Under the pieces are notes generated by a model that ran no database searches, was not told the DNA's origin, and was given only the letters and a program-made list of their open reading frames with translations. A DNA stretch of 64,000 nt from a virus. Position 1 is the stretch's first letter. Every line of letters begins with the position of its first letter. The stretch spans positions 1 through 64,000 of the IMG/VR virus record IMGVR_UViG_3300045999_011735; one strand, given 5' to 3'. A program made the translations under genes and the position numbers. Shown here piece by piece: positions 8,809 to 29,698 of this stretch.

Positions 8809-10173
8809 TTATTTAATGTTTGCAAGTTTCTGCATACGAGCAATCCATTGGTTGCTCTCAACAATTTGTTGAGATTTTTCTGCAACACCAGCTGCTTTAG
8901 ATGCAAATCCTAAAGATTCTTTGATTTGGGCTTTTTCAGCTTTAACTGCAAATGTTTCGTTTAATGATTCATAAACGAGTTTTGCTTCTTTAGCTGATTC
9001 AGCTTTATCAAAAGCTTGTACAACCTTAATTTTCTGAGACTCTGTTAAGTTTTTAGCTTTGAAGAGCTTATTAACGTAAAGTAATTTAGCGTTTAATAAG
9101 TTTACTTCTTGAAGTTCTTGACGAAGAGTTTGAATAGTAGAAATTGCTTCTTCAAGTTCAGCTTCAGCAATACCAGTAGTTTTACTTGCAACTACAGCAC
9201 CACCTTTGCTTACAATACACTTTTGGAAAGCAGACATACGCTTGTCTGAAAGGAATCCCTGTTTTGGAACTTCTTTCGTAGCTTGTTCTCTACATGCTTT
9301 AACATCATCAGCAGTTAACTTCTTAGATGAAGTGCTGTATGAGCTAGCAACGGCAGAATCGTACTTGTCAGAAAGCCAGTTTGAAGCATCTTTAAAGAAA
9401 TCTTTAAGACCTTCGTCTAAATTTTTCTTTTTGTAATCTTCAACACCTTCTTCTTCAGCAGTGTCTTTTTTGTCGCCACGCTTGTCAGCAGGTACATCGC
9501 CTTTGTTTCCACCATACTTTTTTCTCTCTTCAAGAGAATCTTCTTCACCTAATAACTCAGCTAGAATTTCTTCTAAATTAACTTCATCATCAGTTGTGTC
9601 AGGCAATTCAGCGTCTACATCAACGTCAGCATCAACGTCAACATCTTCGCCATCAGGCCCCATTTCTTGAGAAACTATGTCGCGGATTAGTTCCTCTAAT
9701 TCATCCATAGAAAGTTCAGATACTTCTTTATCTTCCTCTTTTTCTTCTTCTTCATCAGATTCTTCGTCTTCAACGTCTTCTTCAGCTTCGATTTCTTCTT
9801 CTTCTTTAGCTTCTTTAAGATCGTCTTTTTTCTCAGACAATTCTTCATCTAATTCGGCAAGAATTTCATCAAGGTTGATTTCTTCGAGACTATTATCGTC
9901 ATCGTCGAATTTTTCCATATCTGTCATTTCTTCCATTTTTTCTTTGGCCTCTTTAGCTTTAGCTTCTTCAACTGCATCTGCATCATCCATCATCTCTTCC
10001 ATTGGCTTTTTTTCTTCGTCTTCATCCATAGCTTCTGCTAATTTAGCAGCAAACATAGATTGTAAACGTGGAGTAAAAGCCTCTTCGAGAGCAAGTTTGG
10101 CTTGAGCAAGAGCAGTTTCGCGTACAGCTTTAGCGTCAGCAATGGCCTCCTTTAAAAGGTCTTTTGTGTTCAT
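8809..10173 (-). CDS. Prohead core/scaffold protein (gp22-like)
   Basis: 454 aa acidic coiled coil immediately upstream of the MCP, with many (L/I)-x-E sites. Confidence 0.8.
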   Translation of the reverse strand: MNTKDLLKEAIADAKAVRETALAQAKLALEEAFTPRLQSMFAAKLAEAMDEDEEKKPMEEMMDDADAVEEAKAKEAKEKMEEMTDMEKFDDDDNSLEEINLDEILAELDEELSEKKDDLKEAKEEEEIEAEEDVEDEESDEEEEKEEDKEVSELSMDELEELIRDIVSQEMGPDGEDVDVDADVDVDAELPDTTDDEVNLEEILAELLGEEDSLEERKKYGGNKGDVPADKRGDKKDTAEEEGVEDYKKKNLDEGLKDFFKDASNWLSDKYDSAVASSYSTSSKKLTADDVKACREQATKEVPKQGFLSDKRMSAFQKCIVSKGGAVVASKTTGIAEAELEEAISTIQTLRQELQEVNLLNAKLLYVNKLFKAKNLTESQKIKVVQAFDKAESAKEAKLVYESLNETFAVKAEKAQIKESLGFASKAAGVAEKSQQIVESNQWIARMQKLANIK

Positions 10174-10179
10174 TTTTCC

Positions 10180-10280
10180 TTAAATTTAAATTTCGGAAGT
10201 AAGCTTATTGTAGAAAAGCTTAATGGGGGTTAATTATTCGTGACGGAGCTATAAAATAGAGTGGGATAGCTCATTAGTCG
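10180..10280 (-). promoter_or_regulatory. Structured 5' leader of scaffold-MCP operon
   Basis: Hairpins GAGCTAT/ATAGCTC and TAAGCTT/AAGCTTA lie between the late promoter (10284-10291) and the ATG at 10173. Confidence 0.45.
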
Positions 10281-10303
10281 TACATAAATATATGTAGAGA
10301 TAC

Positions 10304-10327
10304 AAAAACCACATCTTTGATGTGGTT
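10304..10327 (-). terminator. Rho-independent terminator
   Basis: AACCACATC/GATGTGGTT stem followed by Ts on the minus strand. Confidence 0.7.
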
Positions 10328-10337
10328 CTTTTTATTT

Positions 10338-10466
10338 TTATCGTCCTTGTCCTCGGTATGCAGAAACCTTTTTATCTTTTGGGCCACGAGATTTAGCTGC
10401 TTTGCCTCCTTTACGTTTTCCAAATGTAACTTTTCTGGAATCACCTTTTGATGAACCTTTTGCCAT
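10338..10466 (-). CDS. Small very basic protein (YRGQG-type)
   Basis: Not in the track. 42 aa MAKGSSKGDSRKVTFGKRKGGKAAKSRGPKDKKVSAYRGQGR, between the ferritin-like gene and a terminator. Confidence 0.75.
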   Translation of the reverse strand: MAKGSSKGDSRKVTFGKRKGGKAAKSRGPKDKKVSAYRGQGR

Positions 10467-10475
10467 GACTTTTAA

Positions 10476-10847
10476 TTATTGTAAATTAACCAATTTATAT
10501 TTTGTAGAATAAAGTAGATTTACTACGTTATCTATTTCATTTTGAATAAAACTATCAGATAAGTTTGGTGCTTGTCTTAAAGTGCACACAATAGAAATTA
10601 ATTTTTCAAAATATTTTACAATATTTGATACATCACAATTGTTATCTAAACCAGCTACTGGTCTAAATTGGATTAAACCATATTTTCCTTGGTAGGATTC
10701 AACTAATCCATCAATTAAATCAACTATTTCATCATAATATTTGTTTAATGCTTTATGAGCAGAATAGGCACCCGGACCATTTACACCTAAGTGGAAAACG
10801 TGTGCTTGAGTTCTTGAATGCATTAAAATTGATGCTAATTCTTCCAT
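10476..10847 (-). CDS. Ferritin/Dps-like four-helix protein (DUF5856-like)
   Basis: QAHVFH...AHKALNKYYDEIVDLIDGLVESYQGKYG...TKYKL pattern. Confidence 0.7.
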   Translation of the reverse strand: MEELASILMHSRTQAHVFHLGVNGPGAYSAHKALNKYYDEIVDLIDGLVESYQGKYGLIQFRPVAGLDNNCDVSNIVKYFEKLISIVCTLRQAPNLSDSFIQNEIDNVVNLLYSTKYKLVNLQ

Positions 10848-10859
10848 TGTTGTGTTGTT

Positions 10860-11501
10860 TTAATAGCCAGGTAATTCACAAGTACAGAAACCAGCGCGAT
10901 TGCAAAGAATTTCTGTTACAAGTTCGTTAACTTTGTCTAATTTATATTGTTGTTCTTTAGTATATTGATTGTATTGTTTAGATTCGCTAACAATTTCCAT
11001 AAAAGCACCTTGTGTTGATGGAGTTGACACGAAATCCCAACAAAGTAATTCAAAATCTGGTTGTACTTCAACAGTTTCACCAATTTGTTTTACAGAGCCC
11101 ATACCACGTGATGAAATACCTACAGTAATACCAGCAACTAATAATGCTTTTAAAATATTTCCTGAAGGTGTAGGTAAAATTTCAATTTTTCCCATTACAT
11201 CATCACCATCCCACCATAAAGATTTGATATTATGGCATACATTTTTTAAGTTAATAATTGGAGATTCTGGATGGTCCAACTCTCCCAATGCTCTATTTTC
11301 TTTAATGTATGTGTCTTTGTATTTTTGTACTTCTCTTTCAAGAGTATCTTTAGGGTATACACGACCATTGCCGTTTTTTGCTTCAGCACGTTGTACTAAA
11401 CCTTGAACAATAAGACGTCCACCGTTATTTTTAACGGATTCCTCCAATAAAGTTGGAGTAATATTAAAATTAGTAATACGTTCTATTAATAGCTCTTTCA
11501 T
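10860..11501 (-). CDS. gp21: Prohead core protein protease, T4 gp21-like
   Basis: NGNGRVYP, ALGELDHP, GISSRGMGS and DFVSTPS motifs. Confidence 0.93.
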   Translation of the reverse strand: MKELLIERITNFNITPTLLEESVKNNGGRLIVQGLVQRAEAKNGNGRVYPKDTLEREVQKYKDTYIKENRALGELDHPESPIINLKNVCHNIKSLWWDGDDVMGKIEILPTPSGNILKALLVAGITVGISSRGMGSVKQIGETVEVQPDFELLCWDFVSTPSTQGAFMEIVSESKQYNQYTKEQQYKLDKVNELVTEILCNRAGFCTCELPGY

Positions 11502-12628
11502 TATTTAATATTATATCCTTGTTTTTTTAATTCAGCTACAGCACCATCAATAATAGCTTCAAATTGATCATCGCTATAACGATGTCCTATTTTATCTTGA
11601 AAATTATTTAATTCATCTTCTATGTCTTTGGCATTAAATTCTAAATTAAGATCATTAGATTCAATGTCATTAATTATAGCTTTTACAATCATGTCTATAA
11701 CACCTGGTACAGATGGAGCTTCATCACTTTCATCTCCTTCTTCATATTCATTTATGAAATCATGAAGCATTTCTTTAATTTTATCTTTCAATTTGTTAGC
11801 AGATTCACCAGGAGCACTAGCACCTGCAGAGCGAAATTGGCCTAAAAAATCTTTAATTTTATCTTGTGCTTGAGGAGACATTTTTACACTAGTTCCAGGA
11901 ACTAATGATGGAGATTTATCTTTTTTTTTGTCGTCTTCAGTTTCTTTTAATGGCTTTCCTAATACTAAAGCATCTAATTCAGAATAGTCACCAGTTGACA
12001 TTCCTTTTTTTGCAGCAGATTTGATACTACTAGCACTACCCGCTTCAAATATAGGAGCTGTAAATAAAGCTACAGCTATATCTTGCTCAGAAACACCTAA
12101 TGCTTTAGCAACATCAGAAAATGTAGTTTGGGGATTTTTCCCAAACATTTCGTTGTATTTGTCTTGAATTTGTTTAGGAGTAACGTTAGCTTCAGTTAAG
12201 TTTTTTTTTGACTCTTTAACGATACGAACTTTCTTCATCTCGTTTTTAGTGTCATTAGGTTTGATTGGTTCTAAACCATCAGGCCTATTTTTACTCTTAA
12301 TTGGCTTACTAACTTCCTCTTTAGGAATATCTGTTACAGTAGTAGCAGGATAAATACCATCTTGTTCATCAACTTCTGGCTCTTGTACAACTTTCTTGTA
12401 CTTAGCTGGTTGTGTTGGGTAGTCATATGATGGAGCTTTATCAGGAGTACCCTTTACAGCATCACCTTCGTTTAGTAATCCTTTATTTTTAAGGATTTTA
12501 ACGGAGTCATCAAATGAATTATGGTTAGTTACAAAGTTAGGGAACATCATTCTTGCATTGCGCAAAAATTGATGTCTATTTATTTTACCCTCTTTTAATT
12601 CTTGGTATTGTACGCTAATACTTTTCAT
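11501..12628 (-). CDS. Hypothetical modular protein (putative internal head protein, HTH-like module)
   Basis: 375 aa; modules separated by LNE, VKE, LTE, LKE and INE; segment FSDVAKALGVSEQDI is HTH-like. Confidence 0.55.
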   Translation of the reverse strand: MKSISVQYQELKEGKINRHQFLRNARMMFPNFVTNHNSFDDSVKILKNKGLLNEGDAVKGTPDKAPSYDYPTQPAKYKKVVQEPEVDEQDGIYPATTVTDIPKEEVSKPIKSKNRPDGLEPIKPNDTKNEMKKVRIVKESKKNLTEANVTPKQIQDKYNEMFGKNPQTTFSDVAKALGVSEQDIAVALFTAPIFEAGSASSIKSAAKKGMSTGDYSELDALVLGKPLKETEDDKKKDKSPSLVPGTSVKMSPQAQDKIKDFLGQFRSAGASAPGESANKLKDKIKEMLHDFINEYEEGDESDEAPSVPGVIDMIVKAIINDIESNDLNLEFNAKDIEDELNNFQDKIGHRYSDDQFEAIIDGAVAELKKQGYNIK

Positions 12629-13128
12629 TATTCTTCGGTTTTTTCTTCTTTACCAACTAATTTTTCCAAAATGTCAGCTAAATCTTCTCTCATTTTGTCA
12701 GTAGGGAATACAGTAGCGTATGATTTTGGGTTTTTCTTATAAAATTGTTCGGTTTGCTTTTTAGCTTTTGGTAAAGCTGCTTTAATTTTTGCAGCCATAT
12801 CCATAAGTTCTTCAAAAGCAGCAATTCTTTTTTCTTGAAGTTTTTCTCTTTCTTCAACTTTTTTAGAATCTTCTTCTTTTTCTTCAGCTAAAGATGCTAA
12901 AATATCTTCAAGTTGTAAAGATTCAGCTTCAGTTTTTAACATTCTTTCGTACGTCATTTTCATTTCACGATATCCCTTCATTAACTCAGCAATATCAGTT
13001 TTATGAGCACTAGCTACGCTATCGTCAGAGTTTTTAGCTTCAGATACACGATACTTGATTTCATCACCAAGTTCGTCAAGTTTTCTCTTAAGCTCTTCTT
13101 TACTTAATACTCTTTTATCGTCTTTCAT
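12628..13128 (-). CDS. Hypothetical coiled-coil protein
   Basis: 166-aa ORF, translationally coupled to its neighbour. Confidence 0.6.
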   Translation of the reverse strand: MKDDKRVLSKEELKRKLDELGDEIKYRVSEAKNSDDSVASAHKTDIAELMKGYREMKMTYERMLKTEAESLQLEDILASLAEEKEEDSKKVEEREKLQEKRIAAFEELMDMAAKIKAALPKAKKQTEQFYKKNPKSYATVFPTDKMREDLADILEKLVGKEEKTEE

Positions 13129-13141
13129 ATAATTATTTTAA

Positions 13142-13513
13142 TTAAATATTATACCAAATAGCAACCATTTTTTTACCTGCTAAATTAAAAAATTCAGGAT
13201 CATTTTCTTCCTCATAAAAGCTAGGATCTTTGTCTACATCTTCAGCAAATCTAAAAGATACACCTATTTCTTTGTCTGGTGTTGCATCAAAATTTCCATC
13301 CTCTGTAAATCCTTGAACACTATTAACTAAATTTTTTCTTTTTTCAGCTTCCTCTGGTTTTAATCCATCAAATACTAAGTGATTAATCATGTATTTTTTA
13401 ACTTCATCTATATTGCTATTCAAAAAATTAATTACCGGTTGACCAGTTTCTTCTTTTAAAATACCAGCTAATTGCTGCATTCTTTTAGCTTCTTTAATTA
13501 ATTGTTTTTTCAT
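13142..13513 (-). CDS. Putative internal head protein with RMQxLA leader
   Basis: N-terminus MKKQLIKEAKRMQQLAGILKE. Confidence 0.6.
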   Translation of the reverse strand: MKKQLIKEAKRMQQLAGILKEETGQPVINFLNSNIDEVKKYMINHLVFDGLKPEEAEKRKNLVNSVQGFTEDGNFDATPDKEIGVSFRFAEDVDKDPSFYEEENDPEFFNLAGKKMVAIWYNI

Positions 13514-13527
13514 TGTGATTTATTTTT

Positions 13528-14100
13528 TTATTGTGATAAGTTTCTGATTTTGTTTGATAATGAGTTTAATCTTTCAGATAAAGCACTTAATTGGTTTGTT
13601 TTAGATACCCAAAATGATTCGTTTTTTACAACGTTTTCAGTTTTTAATCTATTTGAATATTCAATTACTTGCTCAATTTCTCTAATGCGTTTTGCTACTT
13701 CTTGTAATGCACGAGCAATTTTTCTTTCAGTTGTAACTTTAGAAACATTTTCGCTAAAACGACGATATGAAATCTCGTTTATTTGTTCTTGATCTTCTTT
13801 ATACAACTTGAATGTTTTTGGTTTTGGTGTTGAAGGAAATTGCTTATAATCAAACATTTTAGAATCTGATGGCATTCCTTCTTTAGCTGGTGTGAAACCA
13901 TCTTTGGTATATGTACTAATATTGGCTTTTCCTGCAGCTAATGTTGGTGTTTTACCTTCTGATTTTTCTCGTTTTTTAAGAAAATACTTACCAGTGTATT
14001 CACCACCAGCGCTAGCAGTAGTAGATGTAGCACCATCCATTTCCTCTAAATTCTGCTTAATTAACTCGTCAATATATTTTTTTAATGCTTCAGGTATCAT
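13528..14100 (-). CDS. Hypothetical protein (putative head-associated)
   Basis: 190 aa; leader ALKKYIDELIKQNLEE; C-terminal coiled coil. Confidence 0.6.
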   Translation of the reverse strand: MIPEALKKYIDELIKQNLEEMDGATSTTASAGGEYTGKYFLKKREKSEGKTPTLAAGKANISTYTKDGFTPAKEGMPSDSKMFDYKQFPSTPKPKTFKLYKEDQEQINEISYRRFSENVSKVTTERKIARALQEVAKRIREIEQVIEYSNRLKTENVVKNESFWVSKTNQLSALSERLNSLSNKIRNLSQ

Positions 14101-14948: not shown

Positions 14949-14983
14949 ACTATAGATTTAACTAATTATAAATATGTATTTTA

Positions 14984-16846
14984 TTATATATCTTTAATAT
15001 TTGATTCGTCGAGCAATGAATCTCCATTATCTTTTGCATTAAATACATTGGATTTTTTAAACATTTCTTGCAACATTTGCTTATTTTGCTCATATATTGC
15101 TCTAGTTCCCTCAAGTGCTAACGGAGAACCACCTTTTGGTTCAGGAGCTTTACCTTTATCTGGTTGTAAATCATATCCTTTTCCAAGTGGATCTTTACCA
15201 AGTATACGTTTTTGTGTATTGTATACTGATGTTTTTACTTGTGGTCTTCCAACAGGATTAGTTTCATCATATTCTGGTGGTACACCGGTTCCGTTACGTC
15301 CTTTGCCATAAAGCGAAGCTAAATCATGTGGTGTTCCATATGACTGACCACTTGCAACTGGATCGTTACCTTCATTTTCAATCTGAGATAAACGGAACAT
15401 GCGTTTTTTATCTTCAACAATTTGATCACGTAAGTCACTGTATTTGTCTTCGCTCATATGGAATAAGTAATCATAAACATAGTCTGATGGGAATAGACTA
15501 GCATCCATAATATTTTTAGCTAAATCAACTTTTTCCTTCATTAATGCTACACGTTCTTGGTCGTATACAATTGATGGTGTTGTTAATTCAAGCTCAAAAT
15601 TCGTTAAATTTTCATCAGTATAACCTTGCGCATATAAGTGTACTAAGGCTATTTTAGTTAATTCACTCACAACTATGCGCTGTATACGCTCAATTGTACG
15701 AGCGAAACGAATATCTTGTTGTGCTAATGTAGATTTACCTTCAACGTCAGCTTCGTATCCCAAGAATGCCTTAGGAACTTTCATAGCAGCTAACATTTTA
15801 TCTCTTAAGTATACTACGTCTTCAATTGCATTATACTCAAGACCAGGTAATGTATCAATTTTAGTACTTGTATTTCCACCTCTTACAGGTACATAGAAGT
15901 CTTCATTTACGTTCATCATGTTGTAACGTAAATTATATTCACCTGTTTTTGGATCAACAAATGGAGTACGTTGTGTTTGTGTTTTAAGTTTTTCCATGTA
16001 TGTTGGGATTTCATTCGGTGGAATGTTACCCATATCAACATAGTAAACACGACGTTGAGGTGCTCTTAAAATACGGTGAATCAACATTGCATCTTCCATC
16101 AATGCTAATTGCTTAAATATCTTACGAGCAGGTTCAATATATGAACGACCATAAGGAAGAAAGTTATAGTCACCTAATAGTCTAAAGTTTGCCATTTCAT
16201 AGTTTTCAAACTTAATACTATCATTATCTACTCCTGATACCATACCGGTATATGAAGCATTTGGTGCTATTCTAAATTGTACGTAAGCTGGATTTTTAGG
16301 GTCAAGTCCTTCTTCTCTAATAACATTATAAACATTAAGAGGAATTACTTGATATACACCATATTTTTCTGAAATATGGAGGTGTAAATAGAAATCACCA
16401 TACTTACACATTGAACGAACCCAACCCCATAAATTAAATTCAATATTTAATATATCATAGAATAAATTATATAATATTCTTTGAATGTTTTCGTCAGGTG
16501 ATTTGATAGCTAACACTTCACCTGCACCATTTTTAAGTGTAGATTCATCAGCTACAATATCTAATACAGATGCTACAATTGGATCACCATCCATTACTTC
16601 ATAGTCGTTATACAACTGCGGTCTTATAACGGTGTAGTTAGAATAAGGAGCATTACCAACATAGGTACCTAAACCACCAGTGTATATACGCTGGTATCTT
16701 TCAGGGTACATATTGGTTTGTACAACTCCTGTTGATTGTATATGGTCAGTATCGATTACTGCTACCTGATTTCCACCAACATTGCGGATAATAACATCAG
16801 TTGAAAATAATCTTTTTAACCTACCAAATAAAGATGTGTCTATCAT
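14984..16846 (-). CDS. gp20: Portal protein, T4 gp20-like
   Basis: LMEDAMLIHRILRAPQRRVYYVDMGN, EDFYVPVRG, TKIDTLPG and AMKVPKAFL motifs. Start re-assigned to ATG 16846. Confidence 0.93.
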   Translation of the reverse strand: MIDTSLFGRLKRLFSTDVIIRNVGGNQVAVIDTDHIQSTGVVQTNMYPERYQRIYTGGLGTYVGNAPYSNYTVIRPQLYNDYEVMDGDPIVASVLDIVADESTLKNGAGEVLAIKSPDENIQRILYNLFYDILNIEFNLWGWVRSMCKYGDFYLHLHISEKYGVYQVIPLNVYNVIREEGLDPKNPAYVQFRIAPNASYTGMVSGVDNDSIKFENYEMANFRLLGDYNFLPYGRSYIEPARKIFKQLALMEDAMLIHRILRAPQRRVYYVDMGNIPPNEIPTYMEKLKTQTQRTPFVDPKTGEYNLRYNMMNVNEDFYVPVRGGNTSTKIDTLPGLEYNAIEDVVYLRDKMLAAMKVPKAFLGYEADVEGKSTLAQQDIRFARTIERIQRIVVSELTKIALVHLYAQGYTDENLTNFELELTTPSIVYDQERVALMKEKVDLAKNIMDASLFPSDYVYDYLFHMSEDKYSDLRDQIVEDKKRMFRLSQIENEGNDPVASGQSYGTPHDLASLYGKGRNGTGVPPEYDETNPVGRPQVKTSVYNTQKRILGKDPLGKGYDLQPDKGKAPEPKGGSPLALEGTRAIYEQNKQMLQEMFKKSNVFNAKDNGDSLLDESNIKDI

Positions 16847-16860
16847 GTGTATAAATATTT

Positions 16861-18438
16861 TTACCTTATTAACCAAGTAATATCTTCATTACCATATTCT
16901 GTGGGCATTTGCCAAGGATTATTAGGACCATTGCCTCTAGCAGCATATGGATTCATAAAGCCTCGTTCTACTGAAAATCCAGTTAGTGAGGCTCTATCCT
17001 GCTCCATATTGTGCTTTCTAAATCTTAATGCAGTATCACGCAAGTAAAGACCCATACTAAATGACATTACTAAGTCGTCATTATATCCATCTTGAGCTTG
17101 TGCTTTACTATTTTTCCAAATAAAAACCTTCATTTCTTCTATTAATCGTTTTGAGCGTATAGTACACGATTTTTCATGTGTATACTCTCTAAATTTTTCA
17201 ATCATTAATGGTCTAGTTTTTACAGACGTTGTAAAACCAGCTATTAAATTATTATTTCCATCCATTCTTCTAGCCCATTGATCAGAGGTTAAAGCATCTT
17301 GTTTTGGAGAATAATACAAATTCGCATATCCCCTATCAATTGCTGTTTGTACTGTATCCCAACCTACGTTAGCGTTTTCTATTGATAATAGAGCATCATT
17401 ATATTCTGATGCTATTCCTACTAACATATGTCCGTAATCACGAGTACCAATTTGTCCTCTATATTCTGCTACTTGTGTTGCTGTTTCAATATCAAACACA
17501 TGACACGCAGAATAGTCTTTACCATCTCCTCTTGCTACGTCAGCTACTACTAAATAACTTTTACTATAGTTTGGTTGTTCCCAAATCCACAAGTTACCAT
17601 CTACTCCTCTTTTTTCAACTGGTTCTATTAAATTAGCTTCAAACCAACCTATAGTATCAGGTTCAAATACTGTATCACCTGAGGTTGCAAAATCGCAATC
17701 ACATTCTTGTGCTGCCATTCTTAAACCTAAATCACTGTCCTGTCTAATTCTCCACTCCTGATTTCTTTCAGGGTGTACACTCCAAGGCAAACGAATAGGA
17801 ACAAATGAATTGTCTCCAATTTCTGATTTTTGCCATGTTTGGTGGAACCAATTACCAGTACCATTAGGAGTAGATAATGCTATACATCCACCACCCGTAG
17901 CTAACGTTTGTTGAGCAGAAGCAAATATCTCTTCAATGTTTTCAATGAACGCGGCCTCGTCTATTATTAGTAAAGATACAGCTTCAGATCTACCAGCATC
18001 ACCAGCAGCAGAAACAGCTTTTACTTGAGAGCCATTTGCCAATTTAAGTAAGAGTTTGTTGTTCTCCAAAGGTTTCTCAGCTCCCTTTAACCATGAAGGT
18101 AAGTTATCATACATAAATCTTACCTTAGTAACCATGTTTTTGGCAGTATCTTGTTTAGTTGCTATACACAACACGTTTTTGTCTTTATGGAACAACATCA
18201 TCCATAAAGAGAAACCAGCTACAAGAGTAGAGATACCTAACTGACGAGATTTAAGTACTATATTATAATTATTTTTCTGGAATTGGTATAGTACTTTTTC
18301 TTGGAAAGGATATAAATGGAATTGTATGCGACCCCTAGTTGGGTGTTGGATCATACAATATTTTTTCATAAAGTGGGCAGGATCGGTCATGCACTTTACA
18401 TACTCCTGCTTAATTATGTCTTTAATATTTTCGCTCAT
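16861..18438 (-). CDS. terL: Terminase large subunit, T4 gp17-like
   Basis: LKSRQLGIST (Walker A-like), LLIIDEAAFI (Walker B), LSTPNG, nuclease motifs ADVARGDGKDYS and NDDLVMS. Confidence 0.95.
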   Translation of the reverse strand: MSENIKDIIKQEYVKCMTDPAHFMKKYCMIQHPTRGRIQFHLYPFQEKVLYQFQKNNYNIVLKSRQLGISTLVAGFSLWMMLFHKDKNVLCIATKQDTAKNMVTKVRFMYDNLPSWLKGAEKPLENNKLLLKLANGSQVKAVSAAGDAGRSEAVSLLIIDEAAFIENIEEIFASAQQTLATGGGCIALSTPNGTGNWFHQTWQKSEIGDNSFVPIRLPWSVHPERNQEWRIRQDSDLGLRMAAQECDCDFATSGDTVFEPDTIGWFEANLIEPVEKRGVDGNLWIWEQPNYSKSYLVVADVARGDGKDYSACHVFDIETATQVAEYRGQIGTRDYGHMLVGIASEYNDALLSIENANVGWDTVQTAIDRGYANLYYSPKQDALTSDQWARRMDGNNNLIAGFTTSVKTRPLMIEKFREYTHEKSCTIRSKRLIEEMKVFIWKNSKAQAQDGYNDDLVMSFSMGLYLRDTALRFRKHNMEQDRASLTGFSVERGFMNPYAARGNGPNNPWQMPTEYGNEDITWLIR

Positions 18439-19525: not shown

Positions 19526-19528
19526 TTA

Positions 19529-20569
19529 TTATTTTGTTTTAGAAACTTCATAGATGCTATCATAATCTTTAAAAGATTCTCCACTATTATCAATATCTTC
19601 AACACCTGAATCTTCCATTAATTCTTCATCATCAAGATCTACAATATCAACATCGGCTGCTTTAACAGAAGCAGGTTTAATTTCTTTACCTAATTTTTTA
19701 GATAATATTTTAGAAATGCTAGCAGCATCTACTGATTTGAATTTGAAATCCAAAGTAGTAAGTACTTTGTCTAATACTTCTGGTTCTAATTCTTTAAGTT
19801 TTGTAACTAAAGTATCAAGTCTTTTAGCTAAGATATCAGTACTAGCTTCTTTACCTTTTTGTAATGCTTTTTTATAGTCAGCAGCACTTAAATCGCCTTC
19901 TTCTTCGCGAATAGCACCAAGACGAATCTTAGAATCTTTATAGGATCTGATAATAGATTGAATTAAAGAATCATTATCAATAGTAAAAGAAGTTGCTTTT
20001 TGTGTTACAGGATCTAAAGTAACAGCTTGTGCTTTTTCAATATTTGCATCAACTGGTTCTTCTTCTGGTTCAGGAGCAGGACCACCTGAAATAAATTCTT
20101 CTTCCTCTTTATCAGAAACTTCTTCTGTTTCAGTACCACCAGTTGCTGTAAGACCATCTACACTAATCAAAGCAGCAAATACAGGATATATACGAGGCAT
20201 CAATGCTTTTCCTTTTTCATCTACAAACCCTAAACCAGCAGCAATTTCAGGACCAGTAATTTCACTTTTTCCTTCCAAAAACTTCAAAGTATCAGCTAAT
20301 TTTGATGGGCTAATAGGACCACCAGTTTTAATATCTTTAGCTTTTTCTTTAATATCGTCAGCTACTTTAAAGACAACAGCTTTACGAGCCATTTCCTCTA
20401 ATTCAACTGAACCACCAGCTCTAAGTGTTTTTTCAATATCAGCCTTATCTGTTGGTTTTAATCTACTGTAGTCAGGATCGGCCTTAGCCATATTAACTGA
20501 ACTAGGTCCGGCAAATAATTTTTCACGGATTTGAGCCTTAATGTATTCTTTTAAATCGCTTTTATTCAT
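19529..20569 (-). CDS. Modular putative internal head protein with winged-HTH-like module
   Basis: Leader MNKSDLKEYIKAQIRE and an LEE|MAR module. Start re-assigned because the late promoter abuts the track start. Confidence 0.55.
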   Translation of the reverse strand: MNKSDLKEYIKAQIREKLFAGPSSVNMAKADPDYSRLKPTDKADIEKTLRAGGSVELEEMARKAVVFKVADDIKEKAKDIKTGGPISPSKLADTLKFLEGKSEITGPEIAAGLGFVDEKGKALMPRIYPVFAALISVDGLTATGGTETEEVSDKEEEEFISGGPAPEPEEEPVDANIEKAQAVTLDPVTQKATSFTIDNDSLIQSIIRSYKDSKIRLGAIREEEGDLSAADYKKALQKGKEASTDILAKRLDTLVTKLKELEPEVLDKVLTTLDFKFKSVDAASISKILSKKLGKEIKPASVKAADVDIVDLDDEELMEDSGVEDIDNSGESFKDYDSIYEVSKTK

Positions 20570-20589
20570 TTGTTTATAGTTTGTGTCCA

Positions 20590-21120
20590 TTATAAATATT
20601 TACTAACCGCTTCTAACACAGCTTTAACGCGTTCCTCTGTTGTTCCTTTAACTTTTACTAATAGATGTGGTGGATTAGCTGCGAGTAAATCGCGTATAGT
20701 TTTGTCAATTTTATTTCTATATGCAATATCTGTTGTTCTAACGCCGTTATCTTCAACGTCTACACCAGCAGGATCTACGTAAACTACAAGATCATATTCG
20801 TTTTTTAGCATTAATGCTGTTTGTATAAACGACATTTTTTCATGCTCACTAATTGAACTTGCATTCATTGTAAATGCACACACATCCCAAATAGTACGAT
20901 CTGTAATAATATTTGGTTGTAGCAATTCACTAGTACGTTCAGCTAAAAATATAAATTGACCTTTTAATGTAGAATCTGTATTAAGTGGAATGCCCAAATC
21001 GCGCAAATATTTGCTACGTTCAGTTTGTACATTATGATCTTTTAAACGATCAGTTTCACCTAATGCTTTAGCTAATGTAGTTTTACCTACACTCATTGTT
21101 CCTACTAATCCTATTTTCAT
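20590..21120 (-). CDS. P-loop NTPase / nucleotide kinase (AAA_28, NadR-like)
   Basis: GTMSVGKTT, ITDRTIWD and EDNGVR motifs. Confidence 0.8.
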   Translation of the reverse strand: MKIGLVGTMSVGKTTLAKALGETDRLKDHNVQTERSKYLRDLGIPLNTDSTLKGQFIFLAERTSELLQPNIITDRTIWDVCAFTMNASSISEHEKMSFIQTALMLKNEYDLVVYVDPAGVDVEDNGVRTTDIAYRNKIDKTIRDLLAANPPHLLVKVKGTTEERVKAVLEAVSKYL

Positions 21121-23511: not shown

Positions 23512-23543
23512 ATTTTAAAAATAATATTTTTATTTGGTTTCCC

Positions 23544-23575
23544 AAAATAAAAAGTGGCGCACTTTCGTGCGCCAC
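23544..23575 (-). terminator. Rho-independent terminator
   Basis: Perfect 9-bp stem GTGGCGCAC-GAAA-GTGCGCCAC followed by TTTTTATTTT. Confidence 0.85.
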
Positions 23576-23640
23576 AGCTGCTATATATATAGAACCTCTA
23601 ATGAGGCGACTAGGCTATGAATCTAGTCTAATGTTTGTTA

Positions 23641-24447
23641 TTATTTTATATTTTGTTCAACCCATTTTCTAATTTCAATAGCTTGGGCTTTGTTATCTGT
23701 TGCTAATATATTAATATCATCTTCTATAAATTCTTCAACAGAACTAAAGTCTTTTGCTTTATTTAACATATCTCCATAATCTCCACCTAAATCACCACCA
23801 CCTAAATCTAAAAGATATTCGTAATATTTTTTCAATTTATCTTTATCAATATCTTCATTTAAACCACCACTAATTTCTTTGATTTTTTCTTGACAAAATT
23901 TAATGATGTCTTGTAAGTAATCAATTTGACCTTCTGTATTTTCAAAACCACCATTCATTAAATCTTGTTTAATGTCGTTGTAGATTGCTGGTTGGTTTTC
24001 ACTTAACTCTTTTTTTGACTCTTCGATATCTAAATCGCCTAACATAGCATCAACATCAGGTCTTGGTCTAGATGTTTTTGGTTCTTGTTGTTTTGAAGTA
24101 TATCCTTCTTTAGATATTAATTCTTTAACTTCTAAACTATTAAAAATAGGATTTACTGCTGGTTGAGGTACATTTCTTTCTTTAGCATAATCAATTTTTT
24201 GTACTCTTTTGCCGTCTTTTTTAGCTTTAAATAAGAATACTAAAGCAGCAAGTTCGCTATTTTTAATGCCTTCAGGTGCTTTACCAGAGGCTTTAGCTTG
24301 CTTTAAAATTTCTTCACCTTTTTCAGTGATTGTATAAGCACCACCAGTACCAGCTGTACGAGCCATTTCTGGAAGAGCCATTTCACTAATAGGCATATTA
24401 GCTAGTTTTTGCATTCTTTGTGCCTCTGAAATAAATTGTTTACTCAT
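23641..24447 (-). CDS. Modular putative internal head protein with RMQKLA leader and wHTH-like module
   Basis: MSKQFISEAQRMQKLANMPISE; modules follow LPE|MAR, LSE| and LNE|. Confidence 0.6.
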   Translation of the reverse strand: MSKQFISEAQRMQKLANMPISEMALPEMARTAGTGGAYTITEKGEEILKQAKASGKAPEGIKNSELAALVFLFKAKKDGKRVQKIDYAKERNVPQPAVNPIFNSLEVKELISKEGYTSKQQEPKTSRPRPDVDAMLGDLDIEESKKELSENQPAIYNDIKQDLMNGGFENTEGQIDYLQDIIKFCQEKIKEISGGLNEDIDKDKLKKYYEYLLDLGGGDLGGDYGDMLNKAKDFSSVEEFIEDDINILATDNKAQAIEIRKWVEQNIK

Positions 24448-24452
24448 GTTAT

Positions 24453-24791
24453 TTATTTTACAATGTATTGTTGATTTCCAATATTTGCACCTAAAAGTGT
24501 GCTTGTATTAATCATACGATATTCACCTTTTTGAACATCAAATACTGGTAGTAATCCTTTAGCAATTGGATCATAAGGTAATTCACCACCTTTTAGGTAT
24601 TTTTTTACACCAAAGCGAGCATTCATTACACGAGTAGTACCATCTTTTTTAATAAATGTTACAGTAAAAAAGGCACCTTTAGTGTCTTTAATCTTTTGGA
24701 CTAATTCATCACGACTAATAGGTACCGCTTGTTCTTTAACAAGTTTTTTTACTTCGGTAATAAGATTTTGTTTGAACTCACTTAGTTTCAT
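24453..24791 (-). CDS. SH3/WYL_2-like beta-barrel protein with leader
   Basis: FFTVTFIKKDGTTRVMNAR...VFDVQKGEYRMIN pattern. Confidence 0.6.
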   Translation of the reverse strand: MKLSEFKQNLITEVKKLVKEQAVPISRDELVQKIKDTKGAFFTVTFIKKDGTTRVMNARFGVKKYLKGGELPYDPIAKGLLPVFDVQKGEYRMINTSTLLGANIGNQQYIVK

Positions 24792-24814
24792 GTATATAAA
24801 TATACAACAAAACG

Positions 24815-25573
24815 TTATTCCTTCGTATTTGCTTCGTATGTTCTATTGGAAACAGTGTGGTATTTATGACAACTATTACATTGTAATTGGATTCGTGCCA
24901 ATCCTGATGCAGTATAACGTCTTTGTGAAAATCTCATATCAGTAGAACCACATTCAGGACATGAACATTTATCATCTGTTTGAGCAACACCGTAATGTAC
25001 TTTGTGTGGAACGTAGTTGGCAATTTCGTTATATACTTTTTCAAGTATTCCAACATCGTTTTTACAATAGTCAACCATTTGTTTTAAGGCTTTCTTGTCT
25101 TTTTTCAAAACAATGTCTTTCCATAAATCAAATCCGGTTTCTAATTTTTCACCTACGTTAAGGAATTGTGCAATGTAATCCAAACGATTACTATTAAAAC
25201 GGAATTTAGAACGAGCGTGTTTTAATGTATCAATTGTAGTATAAGTAGGAAATACTGGAATACGATGAAATAAGCAGCGTGTGCGAATCCAAGGTAAATC
25301 GAATTTATCGCTATTATGTCCTACTAATTCAGATGCTTCGTTAGCTACAGTCATAAACTGTTCTAACATTTCTTTATCGTCTTGGTTTTCATCCCATGTA
25401 AGAGAATAAACCTTGTTTTCATCTGCCCATTTGTAACAGATACAGATGATAGCTCTTTCTTTGATAATATTACTATATGGCACATTTAGCTTATAGCCAG
25501 ATTGCCAAAAGAACCCGATGTTTGGGCTAGTTTCTATATCAAAGAATAGCCTTTTCTTTTTGATTTTACTCAT
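24815..25573 (-). CDS. RNase H-like (DEDD/YprB-type) exonuclease with C-terminal Zn ribbon
   Basis: FFDIETS, GHNSDKFDLPW, RLDYIA and YCKNDV motifs; CPECG...CNSC. Confidence 0.8.
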   Translation of the reverse strand: MSKIKKKRLFFDIETSPNIGFFWQSGYKLNVPYSNIIKERAIICICYKWADENKVYSLTWDENQDDKEMLEQFMTVANEASELVGHNSDKFDLPWIRTRCLFHRIPVFPTYTTIDTLKHARSKFRFNSNRLDYIAQFLNVGEKLETGFDLWKDIVLKKDKKALKQMVDYCKNDVGILEKVYNEIANYVPHKVHYGVAQTDDKCSCPECGSTDMRFSQRRYTASGLARIQLQCNSCHKYHTVSNRTYEANTKE

Positions 25574-25632
25574 AACGAATATAATTTGACTGTAAACGTA
25601 ATACCCAAGAATTGGGTATCCAAATTTGTTTT

Positions 25633-25887
25633 TTAATCTAATTCAAAATCGTCGTTACGATCTAGAATAAAGAAATCACTAACACCGTCTTGATTTATAA
25701 GTGTTATTTTAACGTCGTTACCATATGCTTCAACGTCGTCAACTTTCACTTTATCACCTTGGCTTAATTTACCTAATTGAGCCATTAACGTGTATTCAGC
25801 ACCTACTTTAACACTACCTGCTTTAATTTCATTTACCATACCAGCAAGTTTTTGCATTCTTTGTGCTTCGTTGATATATTGTTTCAT
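25633..25887 (-). CDS. Putative internal head protein with RMQKLA leader
   Basis: MKQYINEAQRMQKLAGMVNE. Confidence 0.6.
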   Translation of the reverse strand: MKQYINEAQRMQKLAGMVNEIKAGSVKVGAEYTLMAQLGKLSQGDKVKVDDVEAYGNDVKITLINQDGVSDFFILDRNDDFELD

Positions 25888-25891
25888 ATTA

Positions 25892-26374
25892 TTATTTTTG
25901 TGTTTCAGTTGATGGTGGAGTACTTACTGGTTCTCCTTTAGCAGGTGTTAATTGTTGTTGTGCTAGATCTTCAGGGGACAAATTACTACTTATAGGACCA
26001 TACTGTAATAATTCAGCTACTTCTTTAGTAGCTCTTTCACGTTCCTTAAGCGTTAACATATCGTACTTAATTCCTCCTATTCTAGCAAGAAAATCTTCTG
26101 TATTCCAAATTAAAGTAAATGTTTGATTATTTGCAAGAACAACTCTAAATGTAGTTGGTTTTGGAGCAACCCATTGAATGTCATTTACAAATATTCTAAA
26201 TTGGAATCCCATTAGTTTTTCTAATGCTTGACGTAATTGAGGGAATCTATAAAGCATCACATTCATAGGTGAATTAGGATCACCTTGATAGGCTGCTTCT
26301 TCTTGTTTTCCCATTATTTGACGTACACGGCCTCTAATATGGGCTACTAATTCTTCTTTTGATTGAAATTCCAT
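25892..26374 (-). CDS. Hypothetical protein
   Basis: 160 aa; WVAPKPTTFRVVL motif; helical leader. Confidence 0.6.
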   Translation of the reverse strand: MEFQSKEELVAHIRGRVRQIMGKQEEAAYQGDPNSPMNVMLYRFPQLRQALEKLMGFQFRIFVNDIQWVAPKPTTFRVVLANNQTFTLIWNTEDFLARIGGIKYDMLTLKERERATKEVAELLQYGPISSNLSPEDLAQQQLTPAKGEPVSTPPSTETQK

Positions 26375-26376
26375 AA

Positions 26377-27132
26377 TTATTTCTTTTTAGCCATTTGTGC
26401 TTTAATAGCAATATCTCTTCCTATTTTCCAATCTTCACTATCTACATCACCATCGCCATCTCGATCTTTACCTTTCTTTTCTGCTACTACTACATCTAAT
26501 GGATCTTTTTCTTCAATTTTTAAGGCATCCATTGTAGCATCAATTTTAGCTACATTTTCTTCACCATCTAAGTAATCAAAAGCACCTTGTAAATAGTCTT
26601 TAGCTTTGATAATATTTGATTGCCACCATTGTGGAAAATCTATTTCAGCACCTGTATCACCGTATGCTTTAATTTTCTTATATAACATAGCAGCCATTTT
26701 AGCTGTTCTAGTTAATTCATTTTTAAGCATTCCTGGTTCATCATCTTGATGGCCTATGTCAATATCTTCATTAACAAATTTATTTTCTTCTCTATCTTTT
26801 TCAATAAGAGCTAACACATTAATTAATTCAGCGTATGCTTGATCTAAACCTTTAATTACTTCAGGATCCTGGTCCATACCAAAGTCCATAGCTGCTTCTA
26901 CTTTTTTAAGTGTAGAACCAATATCAAATATTTTACCAGTTAATTCTGTGCCTTGAACTTCAGCTATTTTTTTAGCTTTAGCAGTAGCGATAGCATACAT
27001 AGATGCTTCGTCACCTTTAAAGGATTTTTTCATTCCTTTAACGATATCTTCTTTTTTCTTTTTCTCCGCTTTAGTAAGAGCTCTTTCTCTTACAGCACGG
27101 CGTATCATTTCTTTTAATTCTGAATGTTTCAT
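26377..27132 (-). CDS. Modular putative internal head protein; C-terminal DxDGDG Ca-binding loop
   Basis: Leader MKHSELKEMIRRAVRE; DRDGDGDVDSED. Confidence 0.6.
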   Translation of the reverse strand: MKHSELKEMIRRAVRERALTKAEKKKKEDIVKGMKKSFKGDEASMYAIATAKAKKIAEVQGTELTGKIFDIGSTLKKVEAAMDFGMDQDPEVIKGLDQAYAELINVLALIEKDREENKFVNEDIDIGHQDDEPGMLKNELTRTAKMAAMLYKKIKAYGDTGAEIDFPQWWQSNIIKAKDYLQGAFDYLDGEENVAKIDATMDALKIEEKDPLDVVVAEKKGKDRDGDGDVDSEDWKIGRDIAIKAQMAKKK

Positions 27133-28223
27133 TTATTAAGTTTTACTTTTGCTTTTTCAGTATTAGGAACAAATTGTTTTCCTTTTTTAGAGCCAGCTAC
27201 TTTCTTACGAGCAGTAGCAGCGCGTTCATCTTTAGTCAAGCGATTTGCTTTAGCGCGAGGGAGACAACGAGTAGTTGCTTTACCTTTTTTCATTGTGCCA
27301 CAAGGACCTGTAATGTTGCCTTGAGTATCAATACGAACCCAATCTTCTTTTTGGAACCAATCGCGTAAGGATTCATCAATATTTCTTTTTGCAATATATT
27401 CTTCTACTTTATCTTCTTTATATCCTAATAATCGGCCTATTTCTCTAGTATCTTCAGCTGTAGCGTTTGATGCTAGATATCCATTATATTTTTCAGCTAA
27501 TGCTTTTAATTTTAATGCTTTTTCTTTAGATTCAGGTAAATAAGCGACATATGCCTCATATGGATTTCCTTCAACACTCATTACTTTAATACCATTGTCT
27601 TTTATAACTTGTTGAACACGTTCCCAATTTTCAGGAGTATTCGATTTTTTAACTATAAAAGCAATATCACGTTTTTTATTAGCCAATGTAGTAATAGCAT
27701 CAACATCAGTATATGCTTCGGATGGGTCTATATCTTCACTCATTAATCCTTTACATACTTTAACAGCGCGTCCTGATAGATATGCAGATGGTTTTTCACC
27801 AGCTGCGATGCGACGATTATAGTAAGCTCTGCCTTTAGGGCATAGCTTTTTTTCATTTAATTCAAATGGACGCTCATCAGGATAATTTTCATAATAACTA
27901 TCCATTATACTAGAAGCTGTATCTTTATCTAGAATAGCGACCCAGGTAGAATTATCATCTTCTATTCCATATGCTTTAAGAAAAACTTTTTCTTGATTTT
28001 TTGATTGGTTATAAAGTAAATCTTTAACAGTTTGTAACGGTATTGAAAATTTTACTCTTTCATCACCCCAACTATCTGGATCAACCCCTGATGGGATAAT
28101 ATCAAATACGAATATTACTTCATCGGGTTCACTAAAATCCCATTCATCAGCATCGCTTAAATCAATGTTGATGTTTTGATTTTCTTTTAGTACTTCTAAT
28201 AGTATGTCTGTTAATTTAATCAA
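27129..28223 (-). CDS. Polyprotein-like putative internal head protein (C-terminal DUF5872-like module)
   Basis: Leader MIKLTDILLEVLKE; modules follow LNE|, MSE| and IDE|SLRDWFQKEDWV...CLPRAK. Confidence 0.6.
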   Translation of the reverse strand: MIKLTDILLEVLKENQNINIDLSDADEWDFSEPDEVIFVFDIIPSGVDPDSWGDERVKFSIPLQTVKDLLYNQSKNQEKVFLKAYGIEDDNSTWVAILDKDTASSIMDSYYENYPDERPFELNEKKLCPKGRAYYNRRIAAGEKPSAYLSGRAVKVCKGLMSEDIDPSEAYTDVDAITTLANKKRDIAFIVKKSNTPENWERVQQVIKDNGIKVMSVEGNPYEAYVAYLPESKEKALKLKALAEKYNGYLASNATAEDTREIGRLLGYKEDKVEEYIAKRNIDESLRDWFQKEDWVRIDTQGNITGPCGTMKKGKATTRCLPRAKANRLTKDERAATARKKVAGSKKGKQFVPNTEKAKVKLNK

Positions 28224-28483
28224 CGCTTATATATTTTTAAACGCAAAGGCCCCGTACCTTTTATAGCACGATGCCAAGTATGTCTCGGTATAAATATTGG
28301 TTGATTTAACGAAGTGGGCAAACTATTTTCAAGTTGTAATTGCCAATCTGTGTGTCCTATTATTTCTATTGTGCGATCTTCATCATCGCGATGCCACAAC
28401 AATTCGATAGGGTCTATATTTTCATCAAATTCACGAATGATATAGAAATCATTATTTTCTATATCGGTGTATGGATGACTCAT
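28220..28483 (-). CDS. Small cupin-like protein
   Basis: WHRD...WQLQ...IFIPRHTWHRAIKG cupin-type motif. Confidence 0.6.
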   Translation of the reverse strand: MSHPYTDIENNDFYIIREFDENIDPIELLWHRDDEDRTIEIIGHTDWQLQLENSLPTSLNQPIFIPRHTWHRAIKGTGPLRLKIYKR

Positions 28484-28485
28484 AA

Positions 28486-28803
28486 CTACTTGTTTCTAAT
28501 CAAAAGTTCGCCTAATACTTCCAAACGCCCAACCTCTCTTTGAAATTCAGTTTGGGTCATATCTAGCGATATTTTTTTATAAGTATCTTCAAATTCACTT
28601 TTAGCTTTTTCCATATCAAGTTTACCTTCAGCTGCTTTCTTATAGTATGGGGCTTTTACTTTAAAGTGGTGCCATGTTAATAATGATAATCCACCTTTTT
28701 CTTCAGCATTTGATGCTATTTTAGCAGCGCCTTTGCCACGGATAGTAGCAAAACTTTCAAATGTTTCTTTTACTTCAGTTAGTATATCTAGTAGTTTAAT
28801 CAT
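28486..28803 (-). CDS. Putative internal head protein with IKLxDILxE leader
   Basis: MIKLLDILTE. Confidence 0.55.
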   Translation of the reverse strand: MIKLLDILTEVKETFESFATIRGKGAAKIASNAEEKGGLSLLTWHHFKVKAPYYKKAAEGKLDMEKAKSEFEDTYKKISLDMTQTEFQREVGRLEVLGELLIRNK

Positions 28804-28813
28804 ATTTTATATA

Positions 28814-29455
28814 TTACCAAAATCCTGAAAATGATGTTTTAAAACCTAATAGTTTGGCGTAACGTGGTAGACGACAGCTCCAATATGATGCTTTTGTTCT
28901 ATCTTTTTTATTTGGACAATCATGACGTTTTGAAAACGCTTGACGTGCTTTTGGATTATTTAATTTTGCACGTAACCCTGTAGTATCACCAAATGATACT
29001 TTTTTAATTTTACCTTTATCTCTAACGTAAACGTAGAATTTCTTTGAACCACCACGCTTTGGTTTTCCAATTGGTGGTGTTTTTTTCTTTTTATCTGCTT
29101 CCTCAAGCTCTAACTCCTCATGTAATTGTACTAATTCATCAACTGAAATTGGGTAGTCTAATGGTACTCTAACGCCGTTATAAAACGCGTATTCCCCGAT
29201 ATTTGACTCAAGTAATTCAGCATCATCTTCTGTCACAGACAATAAACCTTCTTCGTATAACTCGCGTGCTTCGCGAAATAAAGAAAAATAATTTTCAGAT
29301 AGTGGGCGATAAATGTTATGAATTAATTGTCTACCTTCTTCAATATGATATTGTAAACCTTCAGATAGTGTAATTAGTGCTTGTCCTTCTTTAAGCATTA
29401 ATTTAGGACCATTACACCCACAATCATCAACTTCGTAAATTAATTGTTTTTTCAT
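28814..29455 (-). CDS. Two-module protein; basic C-terminal module
   Basis: An acidic N-terminal module, then LEE|ADKKK...KFYVYV...KKVSFG...RHDC...YWSC. Confidence 0.6.
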   Translation of the reverse strand: MKKQLIYEVDDCGCNGPKLMLKEGQALITLSEGLQYHIEEGRQLIHNIYRPLSENYFSLFREARELYEEGLLSVTEDDAELLESNIGEYAFYNGVRVPLDYPISVDELVQLHEELELEEADKKKKTPPIGKPKRGGSKKFYVYVRDKGKIKKVSFGDTTGLRAKLNNPKARQAFSKRHDCPNKKDRTKASYWSCRLPRYAKLLGFKTSFSGFW

Positions 29456-29461
29456 ACTATA

Positions 29462-29698
29462 TTATTTTGCATGCCACCAATTGCAACAATATTCGTCTGC
29501 TGGTGCCGGAATTTTAGCATCACCATCATGCCATTGAAGCCAGTATTTGTTATTACATAAATTGCCTTTTTCAACCCAATACTCACAGTTAGCACACATT
29601 GAACCACCTTTAGTTACACGCATGCCCGGTTTATGATCTGCTGGGTATTCAATTTTGCCTTCAGCAATAAGTCCTAATAATTCGCTTAATTTATGCAT
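29462..29698 (-). CDS. Small Cys-rich protein, HiPIP-like
   Basis: CANCEYW...C...YCCNWW. Confidence 0.5.
   Translation of the reverse strand: MHKLSELLGLIAEGKIEYPADHKPGMRVTKGGSMCANCEYWVEKGNLCNNKYWLQWHDGDAKIPAPADEYCCNWWHAK

Follow-up and report, generated by a model that had tools for sequence, protein, structure and literature searches.

Leader peptides shared by unrelated proteins and the prohead scaffold of a T4-like phage of Bacteroidota

We analyzed the first 64 kb of one 114,996-bp contig (IMG/VR virus record IMGVR_UViG_3300045999_011735), a stretch that is called the window here. It raised a specific question: why do at least 8, and perhaps 11, otherwise unrelated proteins of one phage have at their start a short amphipathic leader of one of three classes, each ending in [ILV]-x-Glu? 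An earlier note on this DNA had proposed that all three leader classes (A, B, and C) were copied from three motifs of the prohead scaffolding protein. Our sequence comparisons split that proposal: classes A and C are copies of scaffold segments, and class B is not. As argued below, the leaders are probably removable capsid-targeting propeptides of the T4 type, which would load cargo proteins into the prohead.

The source of the contig is a T4-like phage of Bacteroidota, and the minus strand carries nearly all of the genes. Its nearest cultured relative was Flavobacterium phage vB_FspM_immuto (immuto), which had 53% identity in the capsid protein and the same gene order; Microcystis phage Mel-JY01 was a more distant relative with a similar scaffold tail. 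The protein that we refer to as the scaffold is a 454-residue product in the gp22 position (8809-10173, minus strand), and its gene lies directly upstream of the gene for a gp23-type capsid protein. The same arrangement was seen in immuto, Mel-JY01, and 87 of at least 120 IMG/VR loci described below. Pfam and PHROG searches of the 454-residue scaffold returned no match, and a structure search found no solved structure of any related scaffold. However, conserved blocks were visible in an alignment of 62 homologues, and these blocks were short helices separated by long acidic linkers. In the window scaffold, the blocks were an N-terminal helix ending in V-R-E (10117-10173), which was conserved in the 62 scaffolds; acidic box 1, INLDEILAE (residues 99 to 107; 9853-9879), which read E-I-N/D-L-D-E-L-L-A-E-L in relatives; a conserved central helix (residues 156 to 170; 9664-9708); acidic box 2, VNLEEILAE (residues 198 to 206; 9556-9582), which was also conserved in relatives; and a tail (8812-8865), in which an I-V-E site (residues 437 to 439) was followed by a 15-residue terminal peptide containing RMQKLANIK. 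The blocks, like all of the leaders below, are on the minus strand. The placement of RMQKLANIK at 8812-8838 in the earlier note was exact.

Class A leaders carry the core RMQKLAG and were found on three window proteins: a 123-residue protein encoded within the head module (leader of 21 residues at 13451-13513; open reading frame [ORF] 13142-13513), a 268-residue protein with a winged-helix-like domain (22 residues at 24382-24447; ORF 23641-24447), and an 84-residue protein (20 residues at 25828-25887; ORF 25633-25887). A six-frame scan of the 115-kb genome found four copies of the class A core, namely, the scaffold end and the three N termini, and the looser pattern [RK]MQ.L[AS] had five matches, the fifth of which was a loose KMQELAN. 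When the first 25 residues of the products of all 171 genes were compared with each other, the class A pairs scored 52 to 65 and ranked at the top, followed by two true paralogue pairs, a class C trio, and a class B pair. Control comparisons that used internal windows yielded zero or one pair with a score of at least 40 and three to five pairs with a score of at least 35.

To extend the comparison, a degenerate DNA pattern for the class A core was used, and it matched at least 120 IMG/VR stretches. In the stretches listed, the motif was always in frame and at a protein end; in one locus (L040), it was located 48 residues before the end of a 351-residue frame. Among the matches listed, about 90 formed the last 9 to 12 residues of proteins of 300 to 470 residues, and 26 came shortly after the initiator Met. 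A gp23-type gene was present in 87 of the at least 120 loci, and it followed the tail-bearing ORF wherever both ORFs were complete. In immuto, the scaffold tail was nearly identical and the leader started two small proteins, gp083 and gp230; a class B leader was present on one immuto protein. We combined the listed IMG/VR copies with those of the window and immuto into a set of 31 class A leaders, in which the motif began 2 to 8 residues after Met and the leader was 17 to 24 residues long. The 31 proteins fell into 27 body clusters that were unrelated according to BLAST, which bore out the claim that unrelated proteins share a leader.

The scaffold tail and the class A leaders had 9 to 12 residues in common. 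When a position-specific scoring matrix (PSSM) was built from 62 scaffold tails alone and run against 3,687 non-scaffold ORFs, the top 22 matches were N-terminal leaders without exception, as expected if the leaders copy the scaffold end as had been claimed. The flanking sites were also alike. All 31 class A leaders had an [ILVM]xE site that began 1 to 4 residues past the motif, compared with 7.6% expected (2% per position), and by manual count such a site also preceded the motif in 26 of the 31. For the C-terminal tails, 80 of 87 had [LIVM]xE within 14 residues upstream of the motif, and 64 of these had it at a spacing of 6. Thus, the reported (L/I/V)-x-E ending held for class A, although one-third of all proteins have [LIVM]xE somewhere in residues 6 to 25. 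The Arg, Leu, Ala, and Gly codons of the class A copies varied freely. Because these synonymous codons varied, selection acts on the peptide and not on the DNA, and the same variation led us to reject a repeat or recombination signal at the DNA level. Taken together, the comparisons supported the conclusion that the scaffold C-terminal tail has been copied in class A leaders.

The class A tag was also found in other positions and neighborhoods. Non-scaffold proteins in four loci (L017, L019, L077, and L089) carried it C-terminally, directly after a site. Class A proteins were also encoded between the portal and protease genes in L129 and L131, the leader of the 84-residue protein was found on other bodies in L129 to L132, and five class A variants were present within 15 kb in L128. 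Two observations touch on this class. The proteins of L017, L019, and L077 (220 to 285 residues) had a class C-like leader in addition to the C-terminal class A tag, each beside an [ILVM]xE site, and were apparently doubly tagged. In the window, a 213-residue protein (28814-29455, minus strand), the C terminus of which matched phrog_7595 (1.5e-12), had the first 8 residues of a class A leader, ending in I-x-E, without the RMQKLAG core; this may be a fourth, minimal leader form.

Class C leaders were identified on a 251-residue protein (16 residues at 27085-27132; ORF 26377-27132), a 353-residue protein (20522-20590; ORF 19529-20590), and a 108-residue protein (16 residues at 52090-52137; ORF 51811-52137), which is encoded by the sole leader gene outside the head-proximal region. 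In the case of the 353-residue protein, the motif lies 4 residues past a second Met, and the start is perhaps at 20569; orthologues in L129 and L131 adjoin the terminase gene and have a similar start. The motif of class C leaders was 2 to 4 residues after Met, and the trio had pairwise N-terminal scores of 36 to 40. A PSSM of the scaffold central helix placed 8 N-terminal matches among its top 22, compared with about 3% expected. For the reverse test, the three class C leaders of the window were made into a matrix that was run over relatives only, with 60 column permutations as controls. Its best matches were almost all either N-terminal leaders of other proteins or the scaffold central helix: there were 21 N-terminal matches and 36 scaffold ORFs, compared with permuted means of 0.3 and 1.1 and maxima of 4 and 28, respectively. 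The match between class C leaders and the scaffold central helix was thus supported in both search directions. Within the genome, the scaffold N-terminal helix scored 30 to 33 against the class C leaders. An internal translation start before the scaffold central helix was considered and rejected, as just 33 of 62 scaffolds have the Met and the others have Leu or Ile instead.

Two further proteins had been assigned to class C, and their leaders were looser and not individually significant. One is a 190-residue head-module protein (14041-14100; ORF 13528-14100), the homologues of which in L041, L051, and L009 were top N-terminal matches of the scaffold-helix PSSM even though the window copy was weak. 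The other is a 112-residue WYL_2/Sm-like protein (24732-24791; ORF 24453-24791; Pfam WYL_2, 2.5e-06).

Class B leaders, which have the form MIKLxxILxE, were found on a 364-residue protein (10 residues at 28194-28223; ORF 27129-28223), the TTG start of which overlaps the upstream stop, and on a 105-residue protein (10 residues at 28774-28803; ORF 28486-28803), homologues of which in L011, L078, and L095 had a leader identical in type. By N-terminal score alone (34), this pair was noise. In 1.2 Mb of related DNA, however, the pattern MIKLxx[ILF][ILF]xE was found after Met 16 times, in addition to the TTG start of the window, and elsewhere only 4 times. The 16 proteins represented 10 body clusters, and a class B leader matrix gave 33 N-terminal matches against a permuted mean of 0.6. 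Judged by these scans, class B is a real, portable N-terminal tag. A looser, 13-residue member that had been placed in this class, located on a 78-residue Cys-rich protein (29660-29698; ORF 29462-29698), did not reach significance individually.

The origin proposed for class B, namely, a copy of INLDEILAE and VNLEEILAE, was rejected because the profiles failed in both directions: PSSMs of the two acidic boxes yielded acidic noise, and the leader matrix had 0 scaffold matches. A regular expression composed from the class B and scaffold-box contexts matched just those two contexts and was circular by construction. What class B leaders have is a fixed layout of ten residues, with hydrophobic residues at positions 4, 7, and 8 and Glu at position 10. 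The T4 capsid-targeting sequence (CTS) has its residues laid out in this way, and no scaffold counterpart of class B could be demonstrated. With regard to all three classes, the peptides quoted in the earlier note were present, but each leader coordinate given there refers to the low (3') end of a minus-strand ORF; the true N termini are at 13513, 24447, and 25887 (class A), 28223, 28803, and 29698 (class B and its looser member), and 27132, 20590, 52137, 14100, and 24791 (class C and its looser members).

Where are the leader genes, and what do they encode? Ten of the 11 lie within 8.8 to 29.7 kb, a stretch with 30 of the 171 genes (Fisher test, 6.5e-8), where they are interleaved with leaderless genes for an AAA_28 NTPase, an FAD oxidoreductase, a pyrimidine-dimer glycosylase, and an RNase H-like exonuclease. 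Pfam and PHROG searches of the cargo bodies yielded almost no matches, and the bodies were mostly orphans. The 84-residue class A protein had close homologues only (87 to 95% identity). In the 268-residue class A protein, residues 30 to 116 of an Atlas model had TM scores of 0.70 to 0.75 to MarR-type domains, and there was a weak Pfam match to HTH_45.

Ten of the 11 leader genes are next to a T4-like head module, which spans 7 to 18.5 kb of the window and was recognized via Pfam, PHROG, and PDB matches; the Pfam and PHROG matches agreed with the claim of such a module with an S77/gp21-type protease. The major capsid protein of the T4 gp23 family (7122-8783, minus strand) matched Pfam Gp23 (6.4e-79) and T4 gp23 in the PDB (2e-30), and an alignment of 40 sequences revealed [LV]xE sites stacked within its first 60 residues. 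A K-W...L-L-E-G motif in this N-terminal region was common to T4 gp23 and the clade of the window phage. The prohead protease of the T4 gp21 family (10860-11501, minus strand; Pfam Peptidase_S77, 1.2e-30; phrog_207, 9e-62) has L-I-E at residues 5 to 7, which resembles LIE-9 of T4 gp21 (PMC9026906). The portal protein of the T4 gp20 family (14984-16876, minus strand; Pfam Portal_T4, 1.6e-67) and the large terminase (16861-18438) complete the set of recognized head genes. Two tagged proteins, one of class A and the other loosely class C-like, are encoded between the portal and protease genes, which is the position of T4 genes 67 and 68. Two neighbors of these genes were also noted: a DUF5856 protein (8.5e-16; 10476-10847, minus strand) between the scaffold and the protease, with a look-alike in L128, and a PhoH-like ATPase (3.9e-49; 6372-7040, minus strand) just downstream of the capsid gene, where a PhoH gene is likewise close downstream in immuto and Mel-JY01.

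Several published results bear on how leaders of this kind might work. The [ILV]-x-Glu ends resemble (L/I)-x-Glu, the type of site that is cut by gp21-family proteases, and within the T4 CTS targeting depends on residues 4 and 7 and processing on residues 8 and 10 (PMC9026906). The internal proteins of T-even phages differ widely and have only a CTS in common (PMC3012670). In P22, T7, SPP1, and 80alpha, scaffold ends bind N-terminal parts of the capsid protein, and the same is suspected for T4 (PMC9546572). If the leaders are capsid-targeting propeptides, each would take the site used by the matching scaffold helix during prohead assembly. For the scaffold tail, this site would most likely be on the capsid protein, either on its inner face or in its N-terminal region, by analogy with other phages. 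A tagged protein would thereby be built into the core, and the S77 protease would then cut both scaffold and cargo after the [ILV]xE sites that flank the docking peptide. The cut would free the mature cargo protein inside the head, where the bodies would stay. Tagged proteins encoded in the head module would probably be core components, and others, such as the winged-helix protein, may enter the host with the DNA.

A number of observations weighed against this interpretation. The capsid protein, the portal, the protease, and the scaffold itself are all candidate receptors. The variants of tail and leader did not strictly covary; the immuto scaffold has RWQ, whereas its leaders have RMQ, and L128 has several variants. 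The mature bodies, examined by eye, were not basic, unlike the T4 internal proteins. The counts given above were not counts of independent events because the loci represent related phages, and 3 of the window's 11 leaders were not individually significant. Gene context was also mixed. The tagged gp230 of immuto is encoded among nucleotide-metabolism genes, and a tagged homologue in L122 is encoded among genes that resembled replication genes by eye. It had been predicted that a scan of related genomes would find leaders only at the N termini of late proteins and in the scaffold; late expression of the tagged genes cannot be claimed because some sit away from head genes.

We considered four other explanations for the leaders. 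The first was that the tagged proteins function as accessory parts of the scaffold or core, like T4 gp67 and gp68; they would be degraded and expelled at maturation and would not be injected as payload. The class A and loose class C-like proteins between the portal and protease are placed as T4 67 and 68 are, relatives keep class A proteins there, and some relatives have scaffold-like proteins with the tag at the C terminus. However, the bodies were highly diverse and differed between close relatives (27 clusters among 31 proteins), which is a better fit to accessory cargo, and one body has a winged-helix fold and another an Sm-like WYL_2 domain. We regard this explanation as rather unlikely.

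A second explanation is that the shared peptides are exosite elements and not addresses: the S77 protease would bind the RMQKLAG-type and class C helices and thereby position the neighboring [ILV]xE sites. The motif would then mark substrates, and incorporation would depend on something else. In scaffold and cargo, the motif was always beside [ILV]xE sites, and an exosite would be useful in that the sites of gp21-family proteases have few other determinants (PMC9026906). Nonetheless, the targeting and processing determinants of the T4 CTS are separable (PMC9026906), the stacked sites of the capsid protein occur without class A or C helices, and other phages usually bind the shell through a conserved scaffold C terminus (PMC9546572, PMC5644958). 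We therefore consider a role purely in proteolysis to be unlikely.

A role outside the capsid, such as GroEL/GroES recruitment, a degron, membrane targeting, or translation initiation, seemed very unlikely. The genome has a GroEL/GroES-like pair, as judged by eye, and Lys-rich N termini are common in AT-rich genomes; however, a role of this kind leaves the identity with scaffold helices, the fixed protease-type sites, and the head-proximal clustering unexplained. Codon variation excludes an RNA- or DNA-level signal, and the leaders have no hydrophobic stretch of the signal-peptide type. Finally, a chance or compositional likeness among N-terminal helices rich in Lys, Glu, Leu, and Ile, which the frequency of [LIVM]xE in N termini, the three to five control pairs with scores of at least 35, and the failed link between class B and the scaffold might suggest, is highly improbable overall: the results exclude it for class A, the class C trio, and class B in its capacity as an N-terminal tag, which leaves only 29462, 13528, and 24453 as possible cases.

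Within the capsid-targeting interpretation, we tentatively raise a more specific possibility. The scaffold may be a string of docking helices, at least two of which (the tail and the central helix) have been copied onto cargo beside a T4-type 10-mer. The three classes would then direct proteins to distinct sites or layers within the prohead core and determine their copy number, and the class A match would identify the kind of receptor that capsid-targeting sequences have in T4-like phages, namely, the scaffold-tail site.

Some features of the window and contig outside the leader system were also recorded. An octamer, TATATTTA, was located 10 to 60 bases upstream of many starts throughout the contig (20 of 63 intergenic gaps), for example, at window positions 10292, 18739, 24804, 31805, 49574, and 55044. 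It may be a promoter element. As a candidate late promoter, it gave no separation, as it preceded early-looking and late-looking genes alike. A 1612-residue ORF (35900-40738, minus strand) without a Pfam match consists of about 1,300 residues of degenerate Thr/Pro-rich TPS[VI]T[VI] hexapeptide repeats (Thr, 39%; Pro, 18%) followed by a Cys-containing C-terminal domain. This composition accounts for a GC skew of 0.47 at 36 to 40 kb. Many glycosyltransferase-like genes were apparent by eye, and the product of this ORF is possibly a glycosylated fiber or linker. A 191-residue protein (31856-32431, minus strand) with a signal-peptide-like start, a beta-barrel-like body, and a weak match to Pfam Phenol_MetA_deg (5e-4) may be an outer membrane protein produced in infection. 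The paralogues at 548-2395 and 2952-4001 (minus strand), which are probably fiber-like, have about 25 N-terminal residues in common (score of 64). Beyond the window, a bS21-like ORF and the GroEL/GroES pair were noted by eye at about 79085-79279 and 97649-99751, respectively; phages that encode bS21 and have a similar head module have been described (PMC9723584).

How much of this system was already known? The closest parallel is in T4, where the CTS of IPI-IPIII and the propeptides of Alt, which are removed by gp21, are likewise short N-terminal propeptides on unrelated proteins, end in (L/I)-x-Glu, and operate with homologous gp20-gp23 proteins (PMC9026906, PMC3012670). The T4 CTS and class B both have 10 residues, with hydrophobic residues at positions 4, 7, and 8 and Glu at position 10, but they are too short to show homology. 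Unlike T4, the window phage combines three classes of leader in its genome. Those of classes A and C also differ from the T4 CTS in being longer (16 to 24 residues), different in residue pattern, far more conserved across distant relatives, and copies of scaffold helices, and the class A tag is found C-terminally as well. To our knowledge, leaders that are copies of scaffold helices have not been described for T4. As a lead only, the N terminus of T4 gp22 resembled the T4 CTS in its Q-x-hydrophobic-I-A-E ending (L126), a match that is too short to test.

Other systems share single aspects of the arrangement. CpmB of SaPI1 is likewise a second protein with the capsid-binding end of the 80alpha scaffold and uses the docking site of that scaffold (PMC5644958). 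Unlike class A leaders, however, CpmB serves a parasite as an alternative scaffold and alters capsid size; it does not tag cargo, has no removed leader, and is not found on many bodies. In herpesviruses and lambda, the protease and the scaffold share C-terminal capsid-binding tails through nested genes, and the HK97 protease has a C-terminal targeting signal. In these three systems, a non-scaffold protein likewise enters the procapsid via a scaffold-type docking peptide, but the sharing is by nested or fused genes and is limited to the protease, whereas the window phage uses separate genes and the opposite terminus. Encapsulin cargo-loading peptides are short terminal peptides on diverse cargo that dock inside an HK97-fold shell. 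This is an analogy only, as encapsulins have unrelated peptides and no scaffold, protease, or tag removal, whereas the window phage has a scaffold, a protease, and a cleavage-type site. In phiKZ, 201phi2-1, and SPN3US, many head proteins are likewise cut after Glu by a gp21-related protease at redundant, stacked sites (PMC9026906, PMC5694885). There, the site is S/A-x-E, and neither a single portable, conserved leader nor a copy of the scaffold has been described. Neither the motif strings nor the concept turned up in literature searches. In summary, the mechanism class of the T4 CTS was known, and the scaffold-copy nature of two leader classes, the coexistence of three classes, and their wide conservation are new.

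The binding partner of the CTS has been an open question since the T4 CTS was defined, and a leader that copies the scaffold tail would give it a direct and testable answer. The leaders would also provide a sequence rule with which to list virion-carried proteins in a large clade of aquatic Bacteroidota phages, as well as in the phage reported for Microcystis, and the listed proteins would be candidates for early-acting, possibly anti-defense, functions. Furthermore, the tags could be used to load foreign proteins into the capsids of these phages, as the T4 CTS does.

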